Shown piece by piece: positions 2,621 to 10,369 of a stretch of DNA of 11,925 bases (within the stretch, counting starts at the first letter, position 1; each line of letters opens with the position of its first letter). Made by a program: the position numbers and the translations under genes. The stretch is from the IMG/VR virus record IMGVR_UViG_2778261461_000004. One strand, written 5' to 3'. The notes below the pieces were generated by a model. It was given only the letters and a program-made list of their open reading frames with translations. It did not search any database and was not told the origin of the DNA. The stretch comes from a virus (lineage: Duplodnaviria; Heunggongvirae; Uroviricota; Caudoviricetes).

Positions 2621-3211
2621 ATGTCTCGAATTTTTGCTTACTGTCGGATATCAACGCTGGATCAGACCACCGAAAATCAACGCCGGGAAATCGAAAGTGC
2701 AGGTTTTAAAATCAAACCTCAGCAAATAATCGAAGAACACATTAGCGGCTCAGCAGCAACCAGTGAGCGTCCTGGTTTTAACCGGTTGCTTGCTCGCCTG
2801 AAATGTGGTGATCAATTGATTGTGACAAAACTGGATCGCCTTGGTTGTAATGCAATGGATATCAGGAAAACAGTGGAACAACTGACCGAAACAGGTATCA
2901 GAGTGCATTGCTTAGCATTGGGTGGCATTGACCTGACCAGTCCAACAGGAAAAATGATGATGCAAGTAATTTCAGCAGTCGCTGAATTTGAACGAGACCT
3001 TTTACTTGAACGCACTCATTCCGGGATAGTAAGAGCCCGCGGCGCAGGGAAACGTTTTGGTCGACCACCTGTGTTAAATGAAGAACAGAAACAGGTGGTA
3101 TTCGAACGAATTAAGTCAGGTGTAAGTATAAGTGCCATTGCCCGGGAATTCAAAACCTCGCGGCAAACCATTTTAAGAGCCAAAGCAAAACTTCAGACAC
3201 CTGACATATAA
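2621..3211 (+). CDS. pinQ: Site-specific DNA invertase, serine recombinase (Pin/Gin/Hin/Cin family)
   Basis: 196-aa ORF with the resolvase N-terminal catalytic motif ([15 protein letters not shown], catalytic Ser in CRIST) and a C-terminal HTH ([22 protein letters not shown]). Size and position next to a tail-fibre assembly gene match Pin-type invertases. Confidence 0.9.
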
Positions 3212-3308: not shown

Positions 3309-3745
3309 CTACGGCAGTGCTGGCCATTCAATATCCTGTGCAGTTGACGTATCAACACGGTTCAGCAATACCCGATACTTTTTCCATGCTTCCAGCAACG
3401 AGATTTCTTCCTCCGTTGCAATTTCCAGATCTGCAGCATCCTGAAGCGGCGCAATATGCTCACTGGCTACCTGCATCAGGTTGTTTTTTGTTTCTTCCGC
3501 CTCCCGGATCCGGAACAGTTTTTCTGCTTCCGTATCCTTCACCCAGGCTGTGCCGTTCCACTTCTGAAACTCCCCTTCCGGCGATAACCAGGTAACATTT
3601 TCCGGTAACGGACCGAGTTCAGAAATAAATAACGCGTCGCCGGAAGCCACGTCATAGACGGTTTTTCCCCGATGATCTTCAACGAGATGCCACGATGCCT
3701 CATCACTGTTGAAAACAGCCACGAAGCCTGCCGGAATATCTGGCG
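3309..3745 (-). pseudogene. tfaQ: Tail fibre assembly protein (Tfa) remnant, 5'-truncated
   Basis: Translation from [35 protein letters not shown] to DIEWPALP matches the C-terminal roughly 140 residues of lambda-type Tfa proteins. The N-terminal ~55 residues are absent and in-frame stop codons lie immediately upstream. No ATG is available; the track's start is a GTG at 3722 that corresponds to an internal Val of intact Tfa. Confidence 0.8.
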
Positions 3746-5086
3746 GTGCAATACCCAGTCTGATTCTGTCGCCGCTCCACCACGAATCTGAATTTTCCAG
3801 GCCTCAGCCTCCTTAACAGGGTCAATCCACGGCATCACTGGTCCGGAATACACCGCGGTATACAGTGAAGAACGGTCAAGATCGCGGGGTAACCTGATAA
3901 CACCGGATGCCACAGCCTGTTTCAGCCATGCACGATACATCGGGCGGGTTACGGCACCAATAAACCAGTCCTGCAGGATCAGGTAGCCATCAGTAGACTC
4001 AACCAGTTCCTGACGCTGGGCGCTGTAAGTGCCGTTATAGTTTCGTGCCGTACTGGAAAAACTCAGACGACTGCCCGCCGCCACGGCACGCAACTGACCA
4101 TTACGAAAAGTTTCAAGGTTAGGATTGGGACGATCCGACTTCACCATTCCGATTTCTTCGCCGGGTTTCAGATCGTCGTAAATAATGCCTGGCTGAATGG
4201 TAAGCTCGCGTTCATTCTCCTTGCTGTCATTACCATCCGTTTCATAGCTCTGTCCGTCGCCTTTCCGGATGTACATCCCCAGAGCAGCGGCGATCCTTGC
4301 TGCAGTCAGCTCAGAATCTTCATACTCTTTCAGGGCGCTGAGGCGGATCAGCACACCGGACAATAAAGACGTCCCGCGCATCTGGTGCAGACGGCGAACA
4401 AATTTAAGATGCAGCATTCGCTCTGCATCCACTTCTTTGGTTTCCATCTGCCGTCCGGATACAGGACGACTTTTATACACCAGATATTTTTCGGGACGCC
4501 CCCAGTCATCAACAAACACGCCCTGATTCAGCCTGTTGCTCTCATCACTGGTCATGGGAATAAAGTCCGGCTCGAGCGCCTCCAGCCAGAAATGAACACC
4601 GGCAGAAGGCGTCAGGCTGTTTATGCGCCCGGAAACCATCTGGGCAAACACCTCACCATCGCGCAGCCAGGTACGCAGCATCAGACGTTCCAGCATCGGA
4701 CGGGTAAACTGCCCGGTGACTTCCGGACTGACAGACCATTCACTCCATCGGGTGCGTATCTCCGCTGCCAGGTCACGGGCAATGGCACCATTGCGTAATA
4801 CCGGATGTGGCTCGACAATAATCCCGTTTTTCCCCACCACCCGTTCTTCCAGCTTGTCAAATACACCAATGACCAGATCGTGGTTGTTATCAAGGTAACG
4901 GGCCTGCTCACGTAACGACACGGCCCCGTACTGGCTTAACTGGTCGGCAGTTCGGTTCTCCCGTCGGGCTTTGTGTGTCCGCGTCGTTTTTACGGCCTCA
5001 TAAGCCTGGATCACCGCTCGGGAACGCAGCCTTGCCGCTTTCCATCCTGGTGAAAAAACGCCAATCACATCATCAAGAATTGCCAT
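3746..5086 (-). pseudogene. Phage portal protein (lambda gpB-like family), 3'-truncated and read through into out-of-frame tfa sequence
   Basis: The track ORF 3539..5158 contains a portal-like sequence from MAILDDVIGVFSPGWKAARLRSRAVIQAYEAVK onward, with the ATG at 5084..5086 overlapping the gpW-like stop (TGATG). About 447 codons are portal-native, against roughly 500-540 for intact homologs. The last ~70 codons of the track ORF are tfa DNA read in another frame. Confidence 0.7.
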
Positions 5087-5298
5087 CAGAACCTCGCCAG
5101 CCGGTACCCGGGATGCCCCCGTCGTCGTGTAATCAGAGCCGCAAGGCGGCGCTCCCACTCCTGCCGCCCCTGCCGGATCTCAGATAAGTTTTCCATGGTC
5201 ATCTGCTGACCATTAAAAGTGACGGATTTTCCGTCCAGCACCGCCATTTCAGCTTCCGTATAACGCTGAATCATGGCTTCAATATCATTCTGATTCAT
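5086..5298 (-). CDS. Head-tail joining / head completion protein, gpW-like
   Basis: 70-aa protein (MNQNDIEAMIQRYTEAEMAVLDGKSVTFNGQQMTMENLSEIRQGRQEWERRLAALITRRRGHPGYRLARF) between terminase large subunit and portal, as in lambda A-W-B order. The C-terminal RRRG.PG motif resembles lambda gpW. The ATG at 5298 overlaps the TerL stop as ATGA, with GGAGG 6 nt upstream. Confidence 0.6.
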   Translation of the reverse strand: MNQNDIEAMIQRYTEAEMAVLDGKSVTFNGQQMTMENLSEIRQGRQEWERRLAALITRRRGHPGYRLARF

Positions 5299-7397
5299 AA
5301 CCATCCTCCGGAAGTCAGCCAGGGGTTAACATCGTCAGTTACTGTTTTCTTCCGTTTTTGTTTTTTAACAGGCGTGGATACCGGTTCCGGTGTGGGTGAC
5401 GGTTCGGTGCTGTCCGGGACACACTCCAGCCAGGTTTCCCGGCTCGCCCACTCCGGTGCATCCGGCCAGCGGATCTTTTCGTATCCATGCAGAATGACCA
5501 GAGCCTCGGCATACACCATCAGGTCAAAAGCTTCGTTGGCACCGCGACCCGGCTTACTCCATTTCCCGTCACTGCTCCGCTCTTCATACGTCAGTTCGTC
5601 GTAAAACCAGCTCCCCAGCCAGTCAGGGAAATGCACATAGCCGGGACCTGGCGAGTCACGCCATAACGCGTTATTCACCCGGTCTTTCAGGGCATCCGTC
5701 TGAAGAAGCCAGAGCGGTACATCACCTGCGGCCTGCGCCCGTCGGCCCGTTCGTCCGGTGTTATCAGGGAATGTACGGGTGATCAGTTTTGCGCGCCGGA
5801 TGCTGTCGCCCTTAAACAGGTAAATACGTTTACCAAGGCCATCACGACGGCAACGACGCCAGAATTTATAGGCATTATCAGTGACCCCGTCTTCACCGCC
5901 GGAGTCCACCGCCATTGCCATCAGTCGTATTTGTTGAGAAGGATCGGAGGCCAGCGGCCAGCTTTTATGAAAAACATCCGTCAGCAGGACATCCCAGTCT
6001 TCCGGATAGCTGGCCGGATCAATTCGCTGGCTCTCCCCGTCGCTGTCACCGCGCAATGACTGCGTGATGTTGTAACGATCAATAATCCAGCGTTCGCCAC
6101 GGCTGCCATAGCCCGTTACCTGAACCACAAAACGGCGATGACGTCCCGCCTGCACATCCACTGTCGCCACAAGGAAATTAACGCCATCCGGCACACTGCG
6201 GGAAGGAACTGGCTCTGCCCGCTGCTCAAGCAGTTCACTTTTTCGTTGCTCCATGCTGGCGCGGGGAAGATAAGGTAATCCCCAGTCGGTATTGATAACC
6301 GTCTTGAGTGTTTCTTCACTTCCGGTTGTCTCGTATTCCTGTTCTGCAGTAAGCAGTTTGTAAACGAGTTGCGAGAGTGTCTGGTAAGCAGCTGCCGGAC
6401 CCTCCATCCAGAATGACGCAATACGTGAACGCCTGGGATCACCATAACGACTGCCATCCGCATTGATGGATTCACCATCCCGCAACCAGACCCCACGTCC
6501 GTTCAGCTCACGTTTTTGTTCAGGCATAATCCGTCCTGAACAGAAAGGACACTGAATATAAGCCGCCTCACTTGCCAGCACGGGATCGGCAATATCACGG
6601 AAACCAGCAACCACATCGCCGCAGGGCTGAAAATACTCACCACAGTGTGGACATGGCCAGTACCAGCGACGGCGATCACCACGGTTATAGAGCGACAGGA
6701 TCCCCGTGGTTGGTGGAGCCTCATGCGGTGAAGTCCGTCGCCATTTCACATCCTTCACATCCCTGCCGGGGGAACTCTCCACCAGCGTCATACCGCTGGA
6801 CATAAATGTGGTGGTACGTTTTGAGGCAAGAGAGAAGGCATCCCCCTCGCCATCAATATCTTCCGGAAAACGGTCATAATCCGTCAGCGCGACGCATTTA
6901 TAATCTGATGAGGACATGATATTGACTGACGGCCAGCCGATTTTCAGGTAGTTGCCAGCAAGGAATGTTCTGTCATAAACGTTGTTGTCATTTTTGTTCG
7001 GACTCAGGCGACTGACCACTTCCGGGCTGACGCGAAACGTTCTGGCGAGTCGTTTTTTGGAGTGTTCGCGGGCTTTTTCCTCTGTCATCTGAATGATCAG
7101 CATATCCGCAGGATCGCAAATCACGTTGTAAATCACCCAGCCGTCAATCAGGCCGATAGTCTTGCCGGTTCGTGCCGGGCCAACAAATATCACTGCGTCG
7201 TATTCACGCGAGGCCAGGCAGTTCATAGGCTCAATAACATACGGTGCCACCAGCGGATCCCACGGGACTGAGTTCCCTGCCCCCATGGGCACCCGCATAT
7301 ACTGAGCAACGGCATCAGCAACCCGCATTCGTCTCGGTGCGCGAAGGATATAACCTGAATCGGTTCGTGCTGCCTTTGCGGTTTCCTGATTCAGCAT
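5295..7397 (-). CDS. Terminase large subunit (lambda gpA family)
   Basis: 700-aa ORF with a Walker A-like motif VGPARTGKT near the N-terminus, directly downstream of a Nu1-like small subunit. Strong RBS GGAGGAG upstream. The start overlaps the TerS stop (TAATG). Confidence 0.9.
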   Translation of the reverse strand: MLNQETAKAARTDSGYILRAPRRMRVADAVAQYMRVPMGAGNSVPWDPLVAPYVIEPMNCLASREYDAVIFVGPARTGKTIGLIDGWVIYNVICDPADMLIIQMTEEKAREHSKKRLARTFRVSPEVVSRLSPNKNDNNVYDRTFLAGNYLKIGWPSVNIMSSSDYKCVALTDYDRFPEDIDGEGDAFSLASKRTTTFMSSGMTLVESSPGRDVKDVKWRRTSPHEAPPTTGILSLYNRGDRRRWYWPCPHCGEYFQPCGDVVAGFRDIADPVLASEAAYIQCPFCSGRIMPEQKRELNGRGVWLRDGESINADGSRYGDPRRSRIASFWMEGPAAAYQTLSQLVYKLLTAEQEYETTGSEETLKTVINTDWGLPYLPRASMEQRKSELLEQRAEPVPSRSVPDGVNFLVATVDVQAGRHRRFVVQVTGYGSRGERWIIDRYNITQSLRGDSDGESQRIDPASYPEDWDVLLTDVFHKSWPLASDPSQQIRLMAMAVDSGGEDGVTDNAYKFWRRCRRDGLGKRIYLFKGDSIRRAKLITRTFPDNTGRTGRRAQAAGDVPLWLLQTDALKDRVNNALWRDSPGPGYVHFPDWLGSWFYDELTYEERSSDGKWSKPGRGANEAFDLMVYAEALVILHGYEKIRWPDAPEWASRETWLECVPDSTEPSPTPEPVSTPVKKQKRKKTVTDDVNPWLTSGGWL

Positions 7398-7891
7398 TAC
7401 TCCTCCTGCTGTAATTCCTCCTCATCATCCGCACCTGCTTCAGTCACCCGCAGGGCTATCTGATCGCGCAGATCATCAATAATGGACTGAACACGGCTCA
7501 CAGCGGCAGGCTGCAGACCGCAGTCACGTTCAAGAATATCCGGTAATGTCTCCAGCACCTGCACGACCGCTTTTGCCCAGATGGCAAACTCCCGTCTGAC
7601 ATCACTGGCCGGAATGAGTTGTGCCGTTTCCTGTTCGAACTTAAGACGCTCACGTTCAGACTGATACCAGGCTTTGCGCTCATGCGCGTCCATTTCGCCT
7701 TCTGCAACCGGCGGTGGTAATGCCAGAAATGCCGACACAATATCAACCACCCGATAAAGCTTGAGGTTGCTTTCATGCCCCCCTGCAACGGGTAGATTTT
7801 GCAGCCTTGCCGCAGCAGTCTGGCGATGTACACCTGACAATGCCGCCAGTTGACTGATATTCAGCGTCAGATTTTTTAACTCTCGATCCAT
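7397..7891 (-). CDS. nohA: Terminase small subunit, Nu1-like (NohA/NohD family)
   Basis: 164-aa ORF. The N-terminus NLTLNISQLAALSGVHRQTAAARL is HTH-like, as in Nu1-type DNA-binding small subunits. The C-terminus is acidic (EAGADDEEELQQEE). It sits about 180 bp downstream of the cos-like sequence, with GGAG upstream of the ATG. Confidence 0.8.
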   Translation of the reverse strand: MDRELKNLTLNISQLAALSGVHRQTAAARLQNLPVAGGHESNLKLYRVVDIVSAFLALPPPVAEGEMDAHERKAWYQSERERLKFEQETAQLIPASDVRREFAIWAKAVVQVLETLPDILERDCGLQPAAVSRVQSIIDDLRDQIALRVTEAGADDEEELQQEE

Positions 7892-8039
7892 ACCCGCTCC
7901 AGAATGTTTTAAACATGCATCTTGCGAACAACTTTAGGCAAACGGTGTTAGCGATGAACAAAAAACAATCAGAATCGACACCATAAAAATAAAACCACTG
8001 TAATACCAATCAATTACAGTAGTGGTGATGACGAATAAA

Positions 8040-8112
8040 ATTTCAAAAACTAGCCTTTTTCCGCGACGCTCCCGCCCCGTGGCAGGGACCCCCACTGGGA
8101 GGACCCGACAGC
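8040..8112 (-). other. Candidate cos site (cosN-like core about 8061..8082, with adjacent cosB-like sequence toward terS)
   Basis: Read on the minus strand the sequence is CCACGGGGCGGGAGCGTCGCGGAAAAAGGC...GAAATTTTATTCGTCAT. This resembles, from memory, lambda cosN (GGGCGGCGACCTCGCGGG) and the downstream GAAAATTTT and TTCGTCAT elements. Position relative to the terS start is about the same as cosN to Nu1 in lambda (~190 bp). Confidence 0.5.
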
Positions 8113-9587: not shown

Positions 9588-9793
9588 TTCATTTTCACTT
9601 TTTTAAATCCAACGACAGACGGCTGGCATTTAAGTATTGTGAAATATTATCAAATGTAATCATCATTGATTTACAAAAGATACATTTTGCCCCGAAAGGA
9701 TTCATGTCAGAAACATCAAAAGATGATGTTCTATACTGGGAACCATGACAACACGGGCATCTAAAGTGAATATGGTTTGTAATATTGTCTACC

Positions 9794-10006
9794 TCAAAGC
9801 GCCACTACATGAACAGCGGCAGGACCTTTAGGTCCGTTCTCAATACCAAATTCAACTTCCTGATTCTCAGTTAATGTTTTGAAATCGTTGCTCTGAATTG
9901 CTGAGAAATGGACAAACACATCTTTGCTGCCATCTTTCGGCGTGATGAAACCAAAACCTTTTTCAGGGTTAAACCATTTCACTAAACCAGTCATTTTGTT
10001 AGACAT
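9794..10006 (-). CDS. cspI: Cold shock protein, CspA family
   Basis: 70-aa [73 protein letters not shown] with RNP1-like KGFGFI and RNP2-like VFVHF motifs. AAGG RBS upstream. Followed upstream by a long untranslated region, as is typical of csp genes. Confidence 0.9.
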
Positions 10007-10369
10007 AATTATTACCTTTTGAAGAAATTAGCCCTTGGGCAGAATGGTCCGAAAAAAAATATCAGAGAGAAAAACCAACAAGGAAATCTCAAGAGGTACA
10101 AATAATAAAATTATAACAATGACTGCTTCAGATAAATTTGTAACAAACCAGAACACCATTAACGCATGATTAACCACCCATAGCAAGGATTACTTTTGTA
10201 AAGAAAAACACAGCAATGAAAGAATAGCTTTATTTATTAATAATAACGTGTCATTCTGATTAAGACCTTTTATCTTACCCTTAAGATTTCAGGAATTTTG
10301 GCTCATGGAAGAGTCCTTTTTATTTAAATTTTACATTCCGCGATGTAAATGTTCCGATTTAATATTACC

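Follow-up and report, generated by a model that had tools for sequence, protein, structure and literature searches.

A probable lambda-type cos site of the mEp460/Ayreon/phi458 packaging module in a Qin prophage remnant of Escherichia coli

The intergenic region upstream of terS in the 11,925-bp stretch of DNA analyzed here (the window) very probably holds the lambda-type cos of the mEp460/Ayreon/phi458 packaging module, kept in a remnant at the Qin locus that lacks the stretch from the portal C terminus to tfaQ. The finding is ordinary: the same module is found in cultured phages and in about a quarter of complete E. coli genomes, this class of cos has been described by Feiss and co-workers, and earlier papers have covered the cos sites of the cryptic prophages of K-12 and what follows from them. 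A lambda-like cos has also been inferred in relatives with a Gifsy-2-type head (mEp213, LLS), citing Vahanian et al. 2017 (PMC12315714).

Sequence comparison showed that the window is 100% identical to positions 1722812-1734736 of E. coli strain C1 (NZ_CP195942.1), inside the locus of the Qin prophage, which ydfJ and rspB border. The flanking genes of Qin (ydfK, pinQ, tfaQ, gnsB, cspI, rzpQ, rrrQ, and ydfR) are present, which identifies the element as Qin, and outside the packaging module the gene order is the same as in K-12 Qin. On the minus strand, essD, ydfR, rrrQ, and rzpQ (lysis) are followed by cspI, ymcF, ynfR, ynfN, and gnsB; then come a ybcW-like ORF (8650-8444), the intergenic region flagged in the preliminary description, terS (7891-7397), terL (7397-5295), a W-like adaptor gene (5304-5086) and, at the end, a truncated portal gene fused to a remnant of tfaQ. 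Beyond this remnant, the plus strand carries pinQ, ydfK, ynfT, and a 5'-truncated ydfJ. The annotated element of strain C1 is about 20 kb long and retains integrase, excisionase, Q, lysis genes, cos, terS, and terL. Its annotation lists neither a repressor nor a replication gene, and places an IS3 between Q and the lysis genes.

The cosQ sequence GGGTCCT is found at 8106-8100 on the minus strand (-29 to -23 relative to the predicted nick) and would be, by homology, a packaging-termination signal. These 7 bp are identical in lambda, 21, phi80, N15, and Gifsy-1 (the window copy is 1 bp nearer the nick) and invariant across 52 distinct relatives of the cosB class described below as class A, while their flanks vary; the conservation of cosQ has been described before (PMC4669245). 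The predicted cosN (8061..8082, minus strand) is placed 22 nt downstream of cosQ and contains the 12-nt cohesive-end sequence GGGCGGGAGCGT at 8077-8066, so that the minus strand reads ...CGGGTCCTCCCAGTGGGGGTCCCTGCCACG/GGGCGGGAGCGT/CGCGGAAAAAGGCTAGTTTTTGAAATTTTATTCGTCATCACC... across the site (slashes mark the predicted nicks). The nicks would fall at 8078/8077 on the minus strand and at 8065/8066 on the plus strand, and, as in lambda-like sites, both are directly preceded by CG (CCACG/GGGCGG on the minus strand, CCGCG/ACGCTC on the plus strand). Compared with the lambda sequence GGGCGGCGACCT, GGGCGGGAGCGT shares 8 of 12 positions, bp 1-6 among them, and departs at bp 7, 8, 9, and 11. Alignment on the nick to lambda, 21, phi80, N15, and Gifsy-1 shows that ACG before the nick and CGCGG after bp 12 are shared as well. 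Among functional natural variants, bp 7-12 of cosN vary freely, whereas cosQ, bp 1-6, and the nick CGs are conserved (PMC4669245, sections 3 and 14), and the differences seen in the window fit the pattern of natural variation reported by Feiss et al. (PMC4669245, section 14).

The composite pattern GGGTCCT-N19-ACGGGGCGG occurs only once in the window (8072-8106, minus strand) and in 0 of 200 dinucleotide-preserving shuffles. The segment from -31 to +44 is 62-64% identical to those of lambda, 21, phi80, N15, and Gifsy-1 (z = 3.3-3.9 over shuffles), and to this extent the alignment to characterized cos regions proposed in the preliminary description succeeds; 3' of +44 it does not, the similarity to the cosB of lambda, 21, and phi80 being no better than that of shuffled sequence (z of -2.1 to -0.4). 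From the predicted minus-strand nick to the terS ATG (7891) there are 186 nt (ATG at +187), compared with 190 nt to the Nu1 ATG in lambda (ATG at +191) and a terS start at +189 in phage 21, in agreement with the lambda-like spacing of about 180 bp claimed earlier. As in lambda-like phages, the site lies directly upstream of terS and terL, both full-length ORFs as had been stated, and the TerL belongs to the GpA family. The exact 20-mer around the nick was found in at least 120 IMG/VR contigs, and the position of cos before terS/terL is kept in at least 120 viral contigs. Among 5426 complete E. coli genomes, 2138 carry the cos-terS module of the window, 1363 of them with a module coverage of at least 80%.

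The boundaries of phage records provide a line of evidence of another kind. The record of phage cdtI (AB285204) begins with GGGCGGGAGCGT and finishes with ...CCTGCCACG, so that both of its ends fall exactly on the predicted nick, and the record of phage Tritos (OV696610) is bounded at the same place (GGGCGGGAGCGT at the start, ...CCTGCCACG at the end); the assembly of mEp460_4F5 breaks 5 nt away from it. The lambda-type cos of the preliminary description is thus borne out by cosQ, cosN, their geometry, and these termini. Tritos, which comes from strain LF82, is a siphovirus that forms plaques (PMC9928086), and no mapping of its ends is described in its paper (PMC9928086). The authors of Ayreon predicted cos packaging from TerL phylogeny only, and a full-text literature search with GGGCGGGAGCGT and its reverse complement returned nothing relevant. 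From homology and the record boundaries, we infer that cleavage would leave GGGCGGGAGCGT as a 12-nt 5' overhang.

All the strings quoted in the preliminary description are present on the minus strand (ACGGGGCGGGAGCGTCGCGG at 8080-8061, GAAATTTT at 8044-8037, and TTCGTCAT at 8035-8028), but the last two do not have the meaning given to them there. GAAATTTT, taken as part of cosB, falls in the A/T block TTTTGAAATTTTATT (8034..8048, minus strand; +30 to +44). This block is conserved in lambda, phi80, N15, Gifsy-1, and Fels-1 and corresponds in offset to TATGAAAATTTTTCA, which the record of phage 21 (M81255) lists as IHF site I2. TTCGTCAT, quoted as part of the same resemblance, is at +43 to +50 here and at +67 to +74 in lambda. 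The resemblance to lambda cosB claimed from these strings therefore has to be abandoned, as the comparison with shuffled sequence 3' of +44 indicates.

A different set of subsites can be proposed by comparison with Fels-1 and Gifsy-2, whose TerS proteins belong to the same family and which show clear R3>-I-<R2-R1> repeats at matching offsets. Since these repeats fit the R3-I1-R2-R1 order with inverted R2 described for lambda-like cosB (PMC9026076), we assigned candidates in the window in the same way. The candidate TerS site R3 (core TCATCACC; 8024..8031, minus strand; +47 to +54) is inside an invariant block of the class-A alignment, and its position matches that of R3 in 21 (+50 to +65) and in lambda. 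The candidate IHF site I1, TACCAATCAATTA (8004..8016, plus strand; +62 to +74), matches 12 of the 13 positions of the consensus WATCAANNNNTTR and lies where lambda and 21 have their I1, with the R3 candidate on one side and the R2 candidate on the other. The putative R2, TCGACACC (7975..7982, plus strand; +96 to +103), is inverted with respect to R3 and R1 and is contained in the conserved block GTGTCGATT. The putative R1, TCATCGCT (7950..7957, minus strand; +121 to +128), sits in the conserved class-A block GTTCATCACTAACACC, where the class consensus is TCATCACT and the Fels-1 counterpart at the same position is GTTCATCATC. The blocks conserved among the 52 distinct class-A sequences include TCGTCATCACCAC (+45 to +57), GTGTCGATT (+97 to +105), and GTTCATCACTAACACC (+119 to +134), and between the first two of them class A has a perfect IHF consensus, TATCAATNNATTA (plus strand). 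Because neither R-site motifs nor IHF-site motifs are in excess over chance in the window, the four assignments are offered as hypotheses.

Contigs sharing the 20-mer that flanks the nick have at least three unrelated classes of cosB downstream of about +33, each followed by its own DUF1441 terS, which starts at +184 to +187 in all three classes. Class A, with 60 loci, includes the cosB of the window. In class B, that of cdtI, neither inspection by eye nor a repeat search gave a convincing R3/R2/R1 triplet.

The small terminase encoded by terS (7397..7891, minus strand; 164 aa) is a Pfam DUF1441 and PHROG 141 protein (PF07278, E = 2.7e-41; phrog_141, E = 7e-74). It is 100% identical to the TerS of Ayreon, phi458, 569R4, and 813R6 and 99% identical to that of mEp460. 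The term "Nu1-like" used for it in the preliminary description holds only in part. As a family name it does not fit: DUF1441 is the only Pfam match of this protein, with no match to Phage_Nu1 (PF07471) in a profile search in which lambda Nu1 itself matched PF07471 at 2.5e-100, and a BLASTP comparison of both proteins gave E = 20. However, the two families are connected by profile methods along almost the entire proteins. The TerS of the window matches the Nu1 PHROG (phrog_57) at 8e-10 and Nu1 matches phrog_141 at 6e-8, while hhalign of small alignments of TerS and Nu1 gave a probability of 71% (E = 3.6e-5, 121 columns) with the N-terminal helix-turn-helix aligned. These matches support "Nu1-like" as a remote relationship. 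No TerS relative was found among solved structures in a PDB sequence search, and DUF1441 receives only passing mentions in the literature searched.

The large terminase encoded by terL (5295..7397, minus strand; 700 aa) is a GpA-family protein with ATPase and nuclease domains (PF05876, E = 3e-71; PF20454, E = 3e-85). It shares 99% identity with the TerL of mEp460_4F5 and phi458 and 24% with lambda gpA. Because of two rare substitutions, described below, it can be called intact at the ORF level only.

Downstream of terL, the prophage is clearly defective, as had been noticed. The portal gene (3752..5086, minus strand; Phage_portal_2, E = 6e-82) is truncated at its 3' end after residue 469 and continues, across a deletion junction at about 3752, into an in-frame fusion with the tfaQ remnant (3309-3752, minus strand). 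All 469 residues are identical to those of the portal of a related viral contig (L016, see below), after which the two diverge, and the fusion partner is 99% identical to residues 45-191 of K-12 TfaQ; RefSeq calls both parts pseudogenes. No protease, decoration, capsid, or tail genes remain in the prophage. The earlier statement that capsid and tail genes are absent is therefore nearly right, except that part of the structural module is retained, namely 85-90% of the portal gene and the intact W-like head-tail adaptor gene (5086..5304, minus strand; phrog_118, E = 1.4e-37), a hypothetical CDS in strain C1. This exact deletion architecture is shared by about 28 of the 5426 complete E. coli genomes.

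A site that is a cos by descent may nevertheless be a dead relic, in which point changes in cosB, and possibly in TerL, stop efficient cutting by any terminase. We regard this as unlikely, but several features point to it. The IHF-like core of the window is TACCAA instead of TATCAA because of a T-to-C change at 8006 (plus strand), that is, TTGGT instead of the TTGAT found in about 56 of 60 relatives and in all live phages examined; 4F5, ev081, and phi458 keep the perfect TATCAA core, and of the roughly 60 class-A loci only L016, L037, and L098 have the change in common with the window. The R1 candidate also departs from its consensus. In TerL, S285F (inside the second CxxC) was seen in only 2 of 45 relatives, and M490I in 0 of 66. 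On the other hand, cosQ, cosN, I2, and R3 match the consensus, the deviations being confined to the IHF core and R1. The function of lambda cos depends only partly on IHF and R1. The latter has been described as having a non-essential accessory role (PMC4669245). Furthermore, L016, a 40.9-kb viral contig, carries both the TTGGT variant and S285F together with full-length terS, terL, and portal genes, and a 739-aa ORF downstream of portal at the expected position of the head genes; it is apparently a complete prophage. Therefore, both changes are older than the deletion and do not necessarily abolish function.

If the cos of the window is active in strain C1, TerS (a DUF1441 protein with an N-terminal helix-turn-helix, remotely related to Nu1) would bind cosB at the R3, R2, and R1 candidates arranged around an IHF-type bend site, and the GpA-family TerL would thus be positioned to nick both strands 12 bp apart. 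The products would have the 5' overhangs GGGCGGGAGCGT and ACGCTCCCGCCC, a prohead would take up the DNA on the side of terS, toward lower coordinates of the window, and cosQ would serve termination at a downstream cos. The remnant can make no prohead and, therefore, the site cannot yield virions alone. Cutting by the resident enzyme on induction would need expression of the resident terminase, which seems unlikely because the early region is missing, with no repressor or replication gene listed and the IS3 lying between Q and the lysis genes. If a phage with matching TerS specificity grew in the cell, its terminase should cut at this cos.

What such a cut could lead to depends on the DNA downstream, since termination in lambda-like phages requires a downstream cosQ and cosN (PMC4669245). 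In strain C1, whose genome has a single copy of this cos and terS, the 58 kb that follow in the direction of packaging (toward ydfJ, marRAB, and lsr) hold no second cosQ-cosN pair. A matching helper should therefore initiate here but not finish, which argues against the helper-mediated cos transduction of a nearby marker that the preliminary description had proposed. The published expectation for a cut of this kind is a dead end: packaging from a lone prophage cos stalls at a full head and gives a tailless, non-infectious particle, whereas a crossover during the stalled packaging gives a recombinant phage (PMC4669245, section 18). The cut could also act as a double-strand-break hotspot where recombination would move the packaging module into or out of an infecting phage. 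Of 19 recombinant junctions between lambda and DLP12, 10 adjoin cos (De Paepe et al., PMC3945230). We infer that, realistically, the site would be a hotspot of breakage and recombination and would supply packaging modules, rather than support cos-to-cos transduction.

The deletions found in K-12, in the window, and in L098 (a variant that keeps cos, terS, and one third of terL) are three independent events, each of which left cos and terS in place and ends in tail-fibre genes. We give little credence to the view that this survival of cos and terS at Qin is non-neutral, with the site kept as a recombination landing pad or as an abortive-packaging decoy. If it were true, infecting lambdoid phages would swap packaging modules via the retained cos in the first case, and in the second the abortive packaging of host DNA would lower phage yield. 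Less probable still is a role as satellite-like hijacker or selectively kept decoy, in which the element would use cos and its own terminase to turn the proheads of infecting phages to its own use or to spoil them. The retention of integrase, excisionase, Q, lysis genes, cos, terS, and terL with the structural genes gone would agree with such a role, as would the repeated retention of cos and terS in independent deletions and the reduction of helper yield by a prophage cos of matching specificity (Feiss et al., PMC4669245, section 18). However, no replication module, satellite-type regulator, or Rpp-like redirecting gene is listed in the annotated element, and an element of about 20 kb that does not replicate cannot form packageable concatemers. 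Next to phage concatemers, one cos in the chromosome hardly counts as a sink, the few genomes that share the deletion architecture give no sign of spread as a unit, and the deletions differ at their left ends, as random decay predicts.

Within cosB there is an 11-bp inverted repeat (7994..8023, minus strand; arms at 8023-8013 and 8004-7994) around the IHF-like core and followed by a T-run. The functional feature of the region could in principle be this hairpin and T-run (8023-7994), acting as a terminator or RNA element for terS, with the cos resemblance being secondary, but this seems very improbable. The repeat, with 91% complementarity in the repeat search, does score as terminator-like (11 pairs, 8-nt loop, T-rich tail), and it is 93% paired in relatives. 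Nonetheless, only 3 of its pairs are GC, the window has 1 terminator-like match when shuffles give 0.9, and the pairing over 37 relatives (93.4%) is like that of shuffles (92.7%), covariation being no better than in them. The data support neither the terminator nor the RNA-hairpin reading of the palindrome, and such a reading would also leave cosQ, cosN, and the termini of the phage records unexplained. Finally, that this is a GC-rich intergenic stretch resembling a cos by chance, with no packaging role, is practically excluded: a cohesive end only 8/12 identical to that of lambda and a cosB unlike that of lambda would suit it, but not a composite pattern missing from all shuffles, phage records that end exactly at the predicted nick, a cosQ invariant among relatives, a position before terS/terL kept in so many contigs, and a cos-terS module so widespread among E. 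coli genomes.

With the lambda-type cos as the preferred reading, positions 7950-8106 could be annotated as a cos (cosQ, cosN, I2, and candidate cosB) for DUF1441-type terminases, and the predicted cohesive end GGGCGGGAGCGT could be used to orient the genomes of mEp460, cdtI, and Tritos-like phages. The site is also a probable recombination or mosaic joint, with cosQ and cosN common to at least three cosB/terS specificity classes and the break at about +33.

The closest known systems are cdtI, Tritos, and the mEp460/Ayreon/phi458 group, all identical to the window in cosQ, spacer length, and cosN (GGGCGGGAGCGT) up to +33. In mEp460_4F5, ev081, and phi458 the cosB is also near-identical to that of the window, whereas cdtI and Tritos have an unrelated cosB after +33 and DUF1441 TerS proteins only 42% identical to that of the window. 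The window differs from the mEp460 group in being a remnant without head and tail genes, in the T-to-C change at 8006, and in the two rare TerL substitutions. With lambda, 21, and phi80 it has in common cosQ, cosN bp 1-6, the nick CGs, and the I2 block (+30 to +44), as well as a terS about 190 bp from the nick, a GpA-family TerL, and the order of the candidate subsites. However, its candidate cosB is more compact than that of 21 (R1 candidate at +121 compared with +150) and unrelated in sequence, its TerS is a DUF1441 protein instead of the Phage_Nu1 of lambda, and its TerL is distant from gpA.

The cos of Gifsy-1 is listed as lambda-like by Feiss et al. (PMC4669245, PMC9026076). Its cohesive end, GGGCGGCAGCGT, matches that of the window at 11 of 12 positions (bp 7 differs) and its cosQ is identical, but Gifsy-1 has a Nu1-family TerS and a lambda/21-like head module, unlike the window; with a TerS of the Nu1 type, it was dropped as a reference for the same TerS family. 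Gifsy-2 and Fels-1 have TerS proteins of the same family as that of the window, at 40-47% identity.

The E. coli PICIs have their own replication and regulation modules. Like the window element, they are chromosomal and non-autonomous and carry a lambda-like cosQ and cosN (PMC6739421, PMC9026076); their rpp gene takes the place of the terS of helper phages, and their cosB lacks repeated R sequences (PMC9026076). The annotated 20-kb element, which has a complete phage terminase (full terS and terL) and no PICI-type genes in its annotation, is not one of them.

The nearest parallels for a cos left behind in a defective prophage are found in K-12. Its Qin prophage, at the same ydfJ...rspB locus, has a cos beside a terS gene and a deletion ending in tail-fibre genes, but there the cosQ-cosN-cosB is identical to that of lambda, the Nu1-family nohA is fused near stfQ, and terL is absent, whereas the window has an mEp460-type module in which terS, terL, and W are intact and most of portal remains. 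DLP12, like the window, retains a cos beside a terS gene in a defective lambdoid prophage, and this cos is a documented hotspot for recombination with infecting lambda (PMC3945230).

Among the viral-contig loci sharing the 20-mer around the predicted nick (L010-L129), we found a single, identical segment running from cosQ through cosN to +33, beyond which the sequences fall into no fewer than three unrelated classes of cosB and terS, represented by 60 (class A, to which the window belongs), 41 (class B) and 16 loci (class C). This arrangement suggests that a mosaic joint lies just 3' of GGCTAGTTTTTG, at approximately position 8044 of the window (+33/+34). Judging from these sequences, the three classes appear to have their termination signals in common and to differ in initiation specificity. 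The mEp460_4F5 record (LR595868; L004 1-30) begins on the 5' side of the predicted nick, 5 nt away from it, and its cosN lacks 3 nt (TCG); both features probably arose as an artefact of assembly where the genome physically ends.

Within cosB, the core of the IHF consensus is perfectly conserved except for a T-to-C change at position 8006 (plus strand), which turns TATCAA into TACCAA. Live phages carry the consensus, and the change is common only to the window, the apparently complete relative L016, the viral-contig locus L037 and L098, a Qin variant that keeps cos, terS and one third of terL. Around this IHF-like core, an 11-bp palindrome followed by a T-run (7994-8023) has the shape of a terminator, yet it is AT-rich, and no convincing covariation was found for it. 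As for the terminase, described as apparently intact in the preliminary description, TerL (terL, 5295-7397) has substitutions at residues 285 and 490: S285F, within the second CxxC motif, is present in 2 of 45 relatives, and M490I, close to the MAMAVDSGG motif, in none of 66, so that the enzyme may not be fully wild-type.

The strain C1 chromosome (1672000-1746736; L142 and L001) was used to read the reach of packaging from the cos of the window. A headful of ~45 kb would span ydfJ, dcp, dgcZ, marRAB, marC and part of the lsr operon, and no terminating cos was found across this span.

Three different deletions are seen at the Qin locus, each with its start among the packaging genes and its end among the tail-fibre genes, and each leaving cos and terS in place: a portal'-tfaQ' fusion in the window (3309-5158), a terL(1-234)'-tail fibre fusion in L098 (5284-9469) and a nohA'-stfQ fusion in K-12 (L009 4886-6368). 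In the window, pinQ (2621-3211, plus strand) is intact, but next to it stf has been lost and only a truncated tfaQ is left. A 2025 paper (PMC12529663) links PinQ-mediated inversion to blocked adsorption of phage T2, a function that may have been lost here. Two Rfam matches scored above the gathering score, both on the minus strand: IS009 (3343-3541, 220.9 bits), within the tfaQ remnant, and the cspA thermoregulator (9767-10152, 112.8 bits), upstream of cspI.

At this same chromosomal locus, K-12 MG1655 carries cosQ, cosN and cosB identical to those of lambda together with nohA, of the Nu1 family (L009 6380-6600), whereas the window has an mEp460-type cos and a DUF1441 terS (7890-8110). By sequence comparison, the Qin variants differ by exchange of the entire packaging module.
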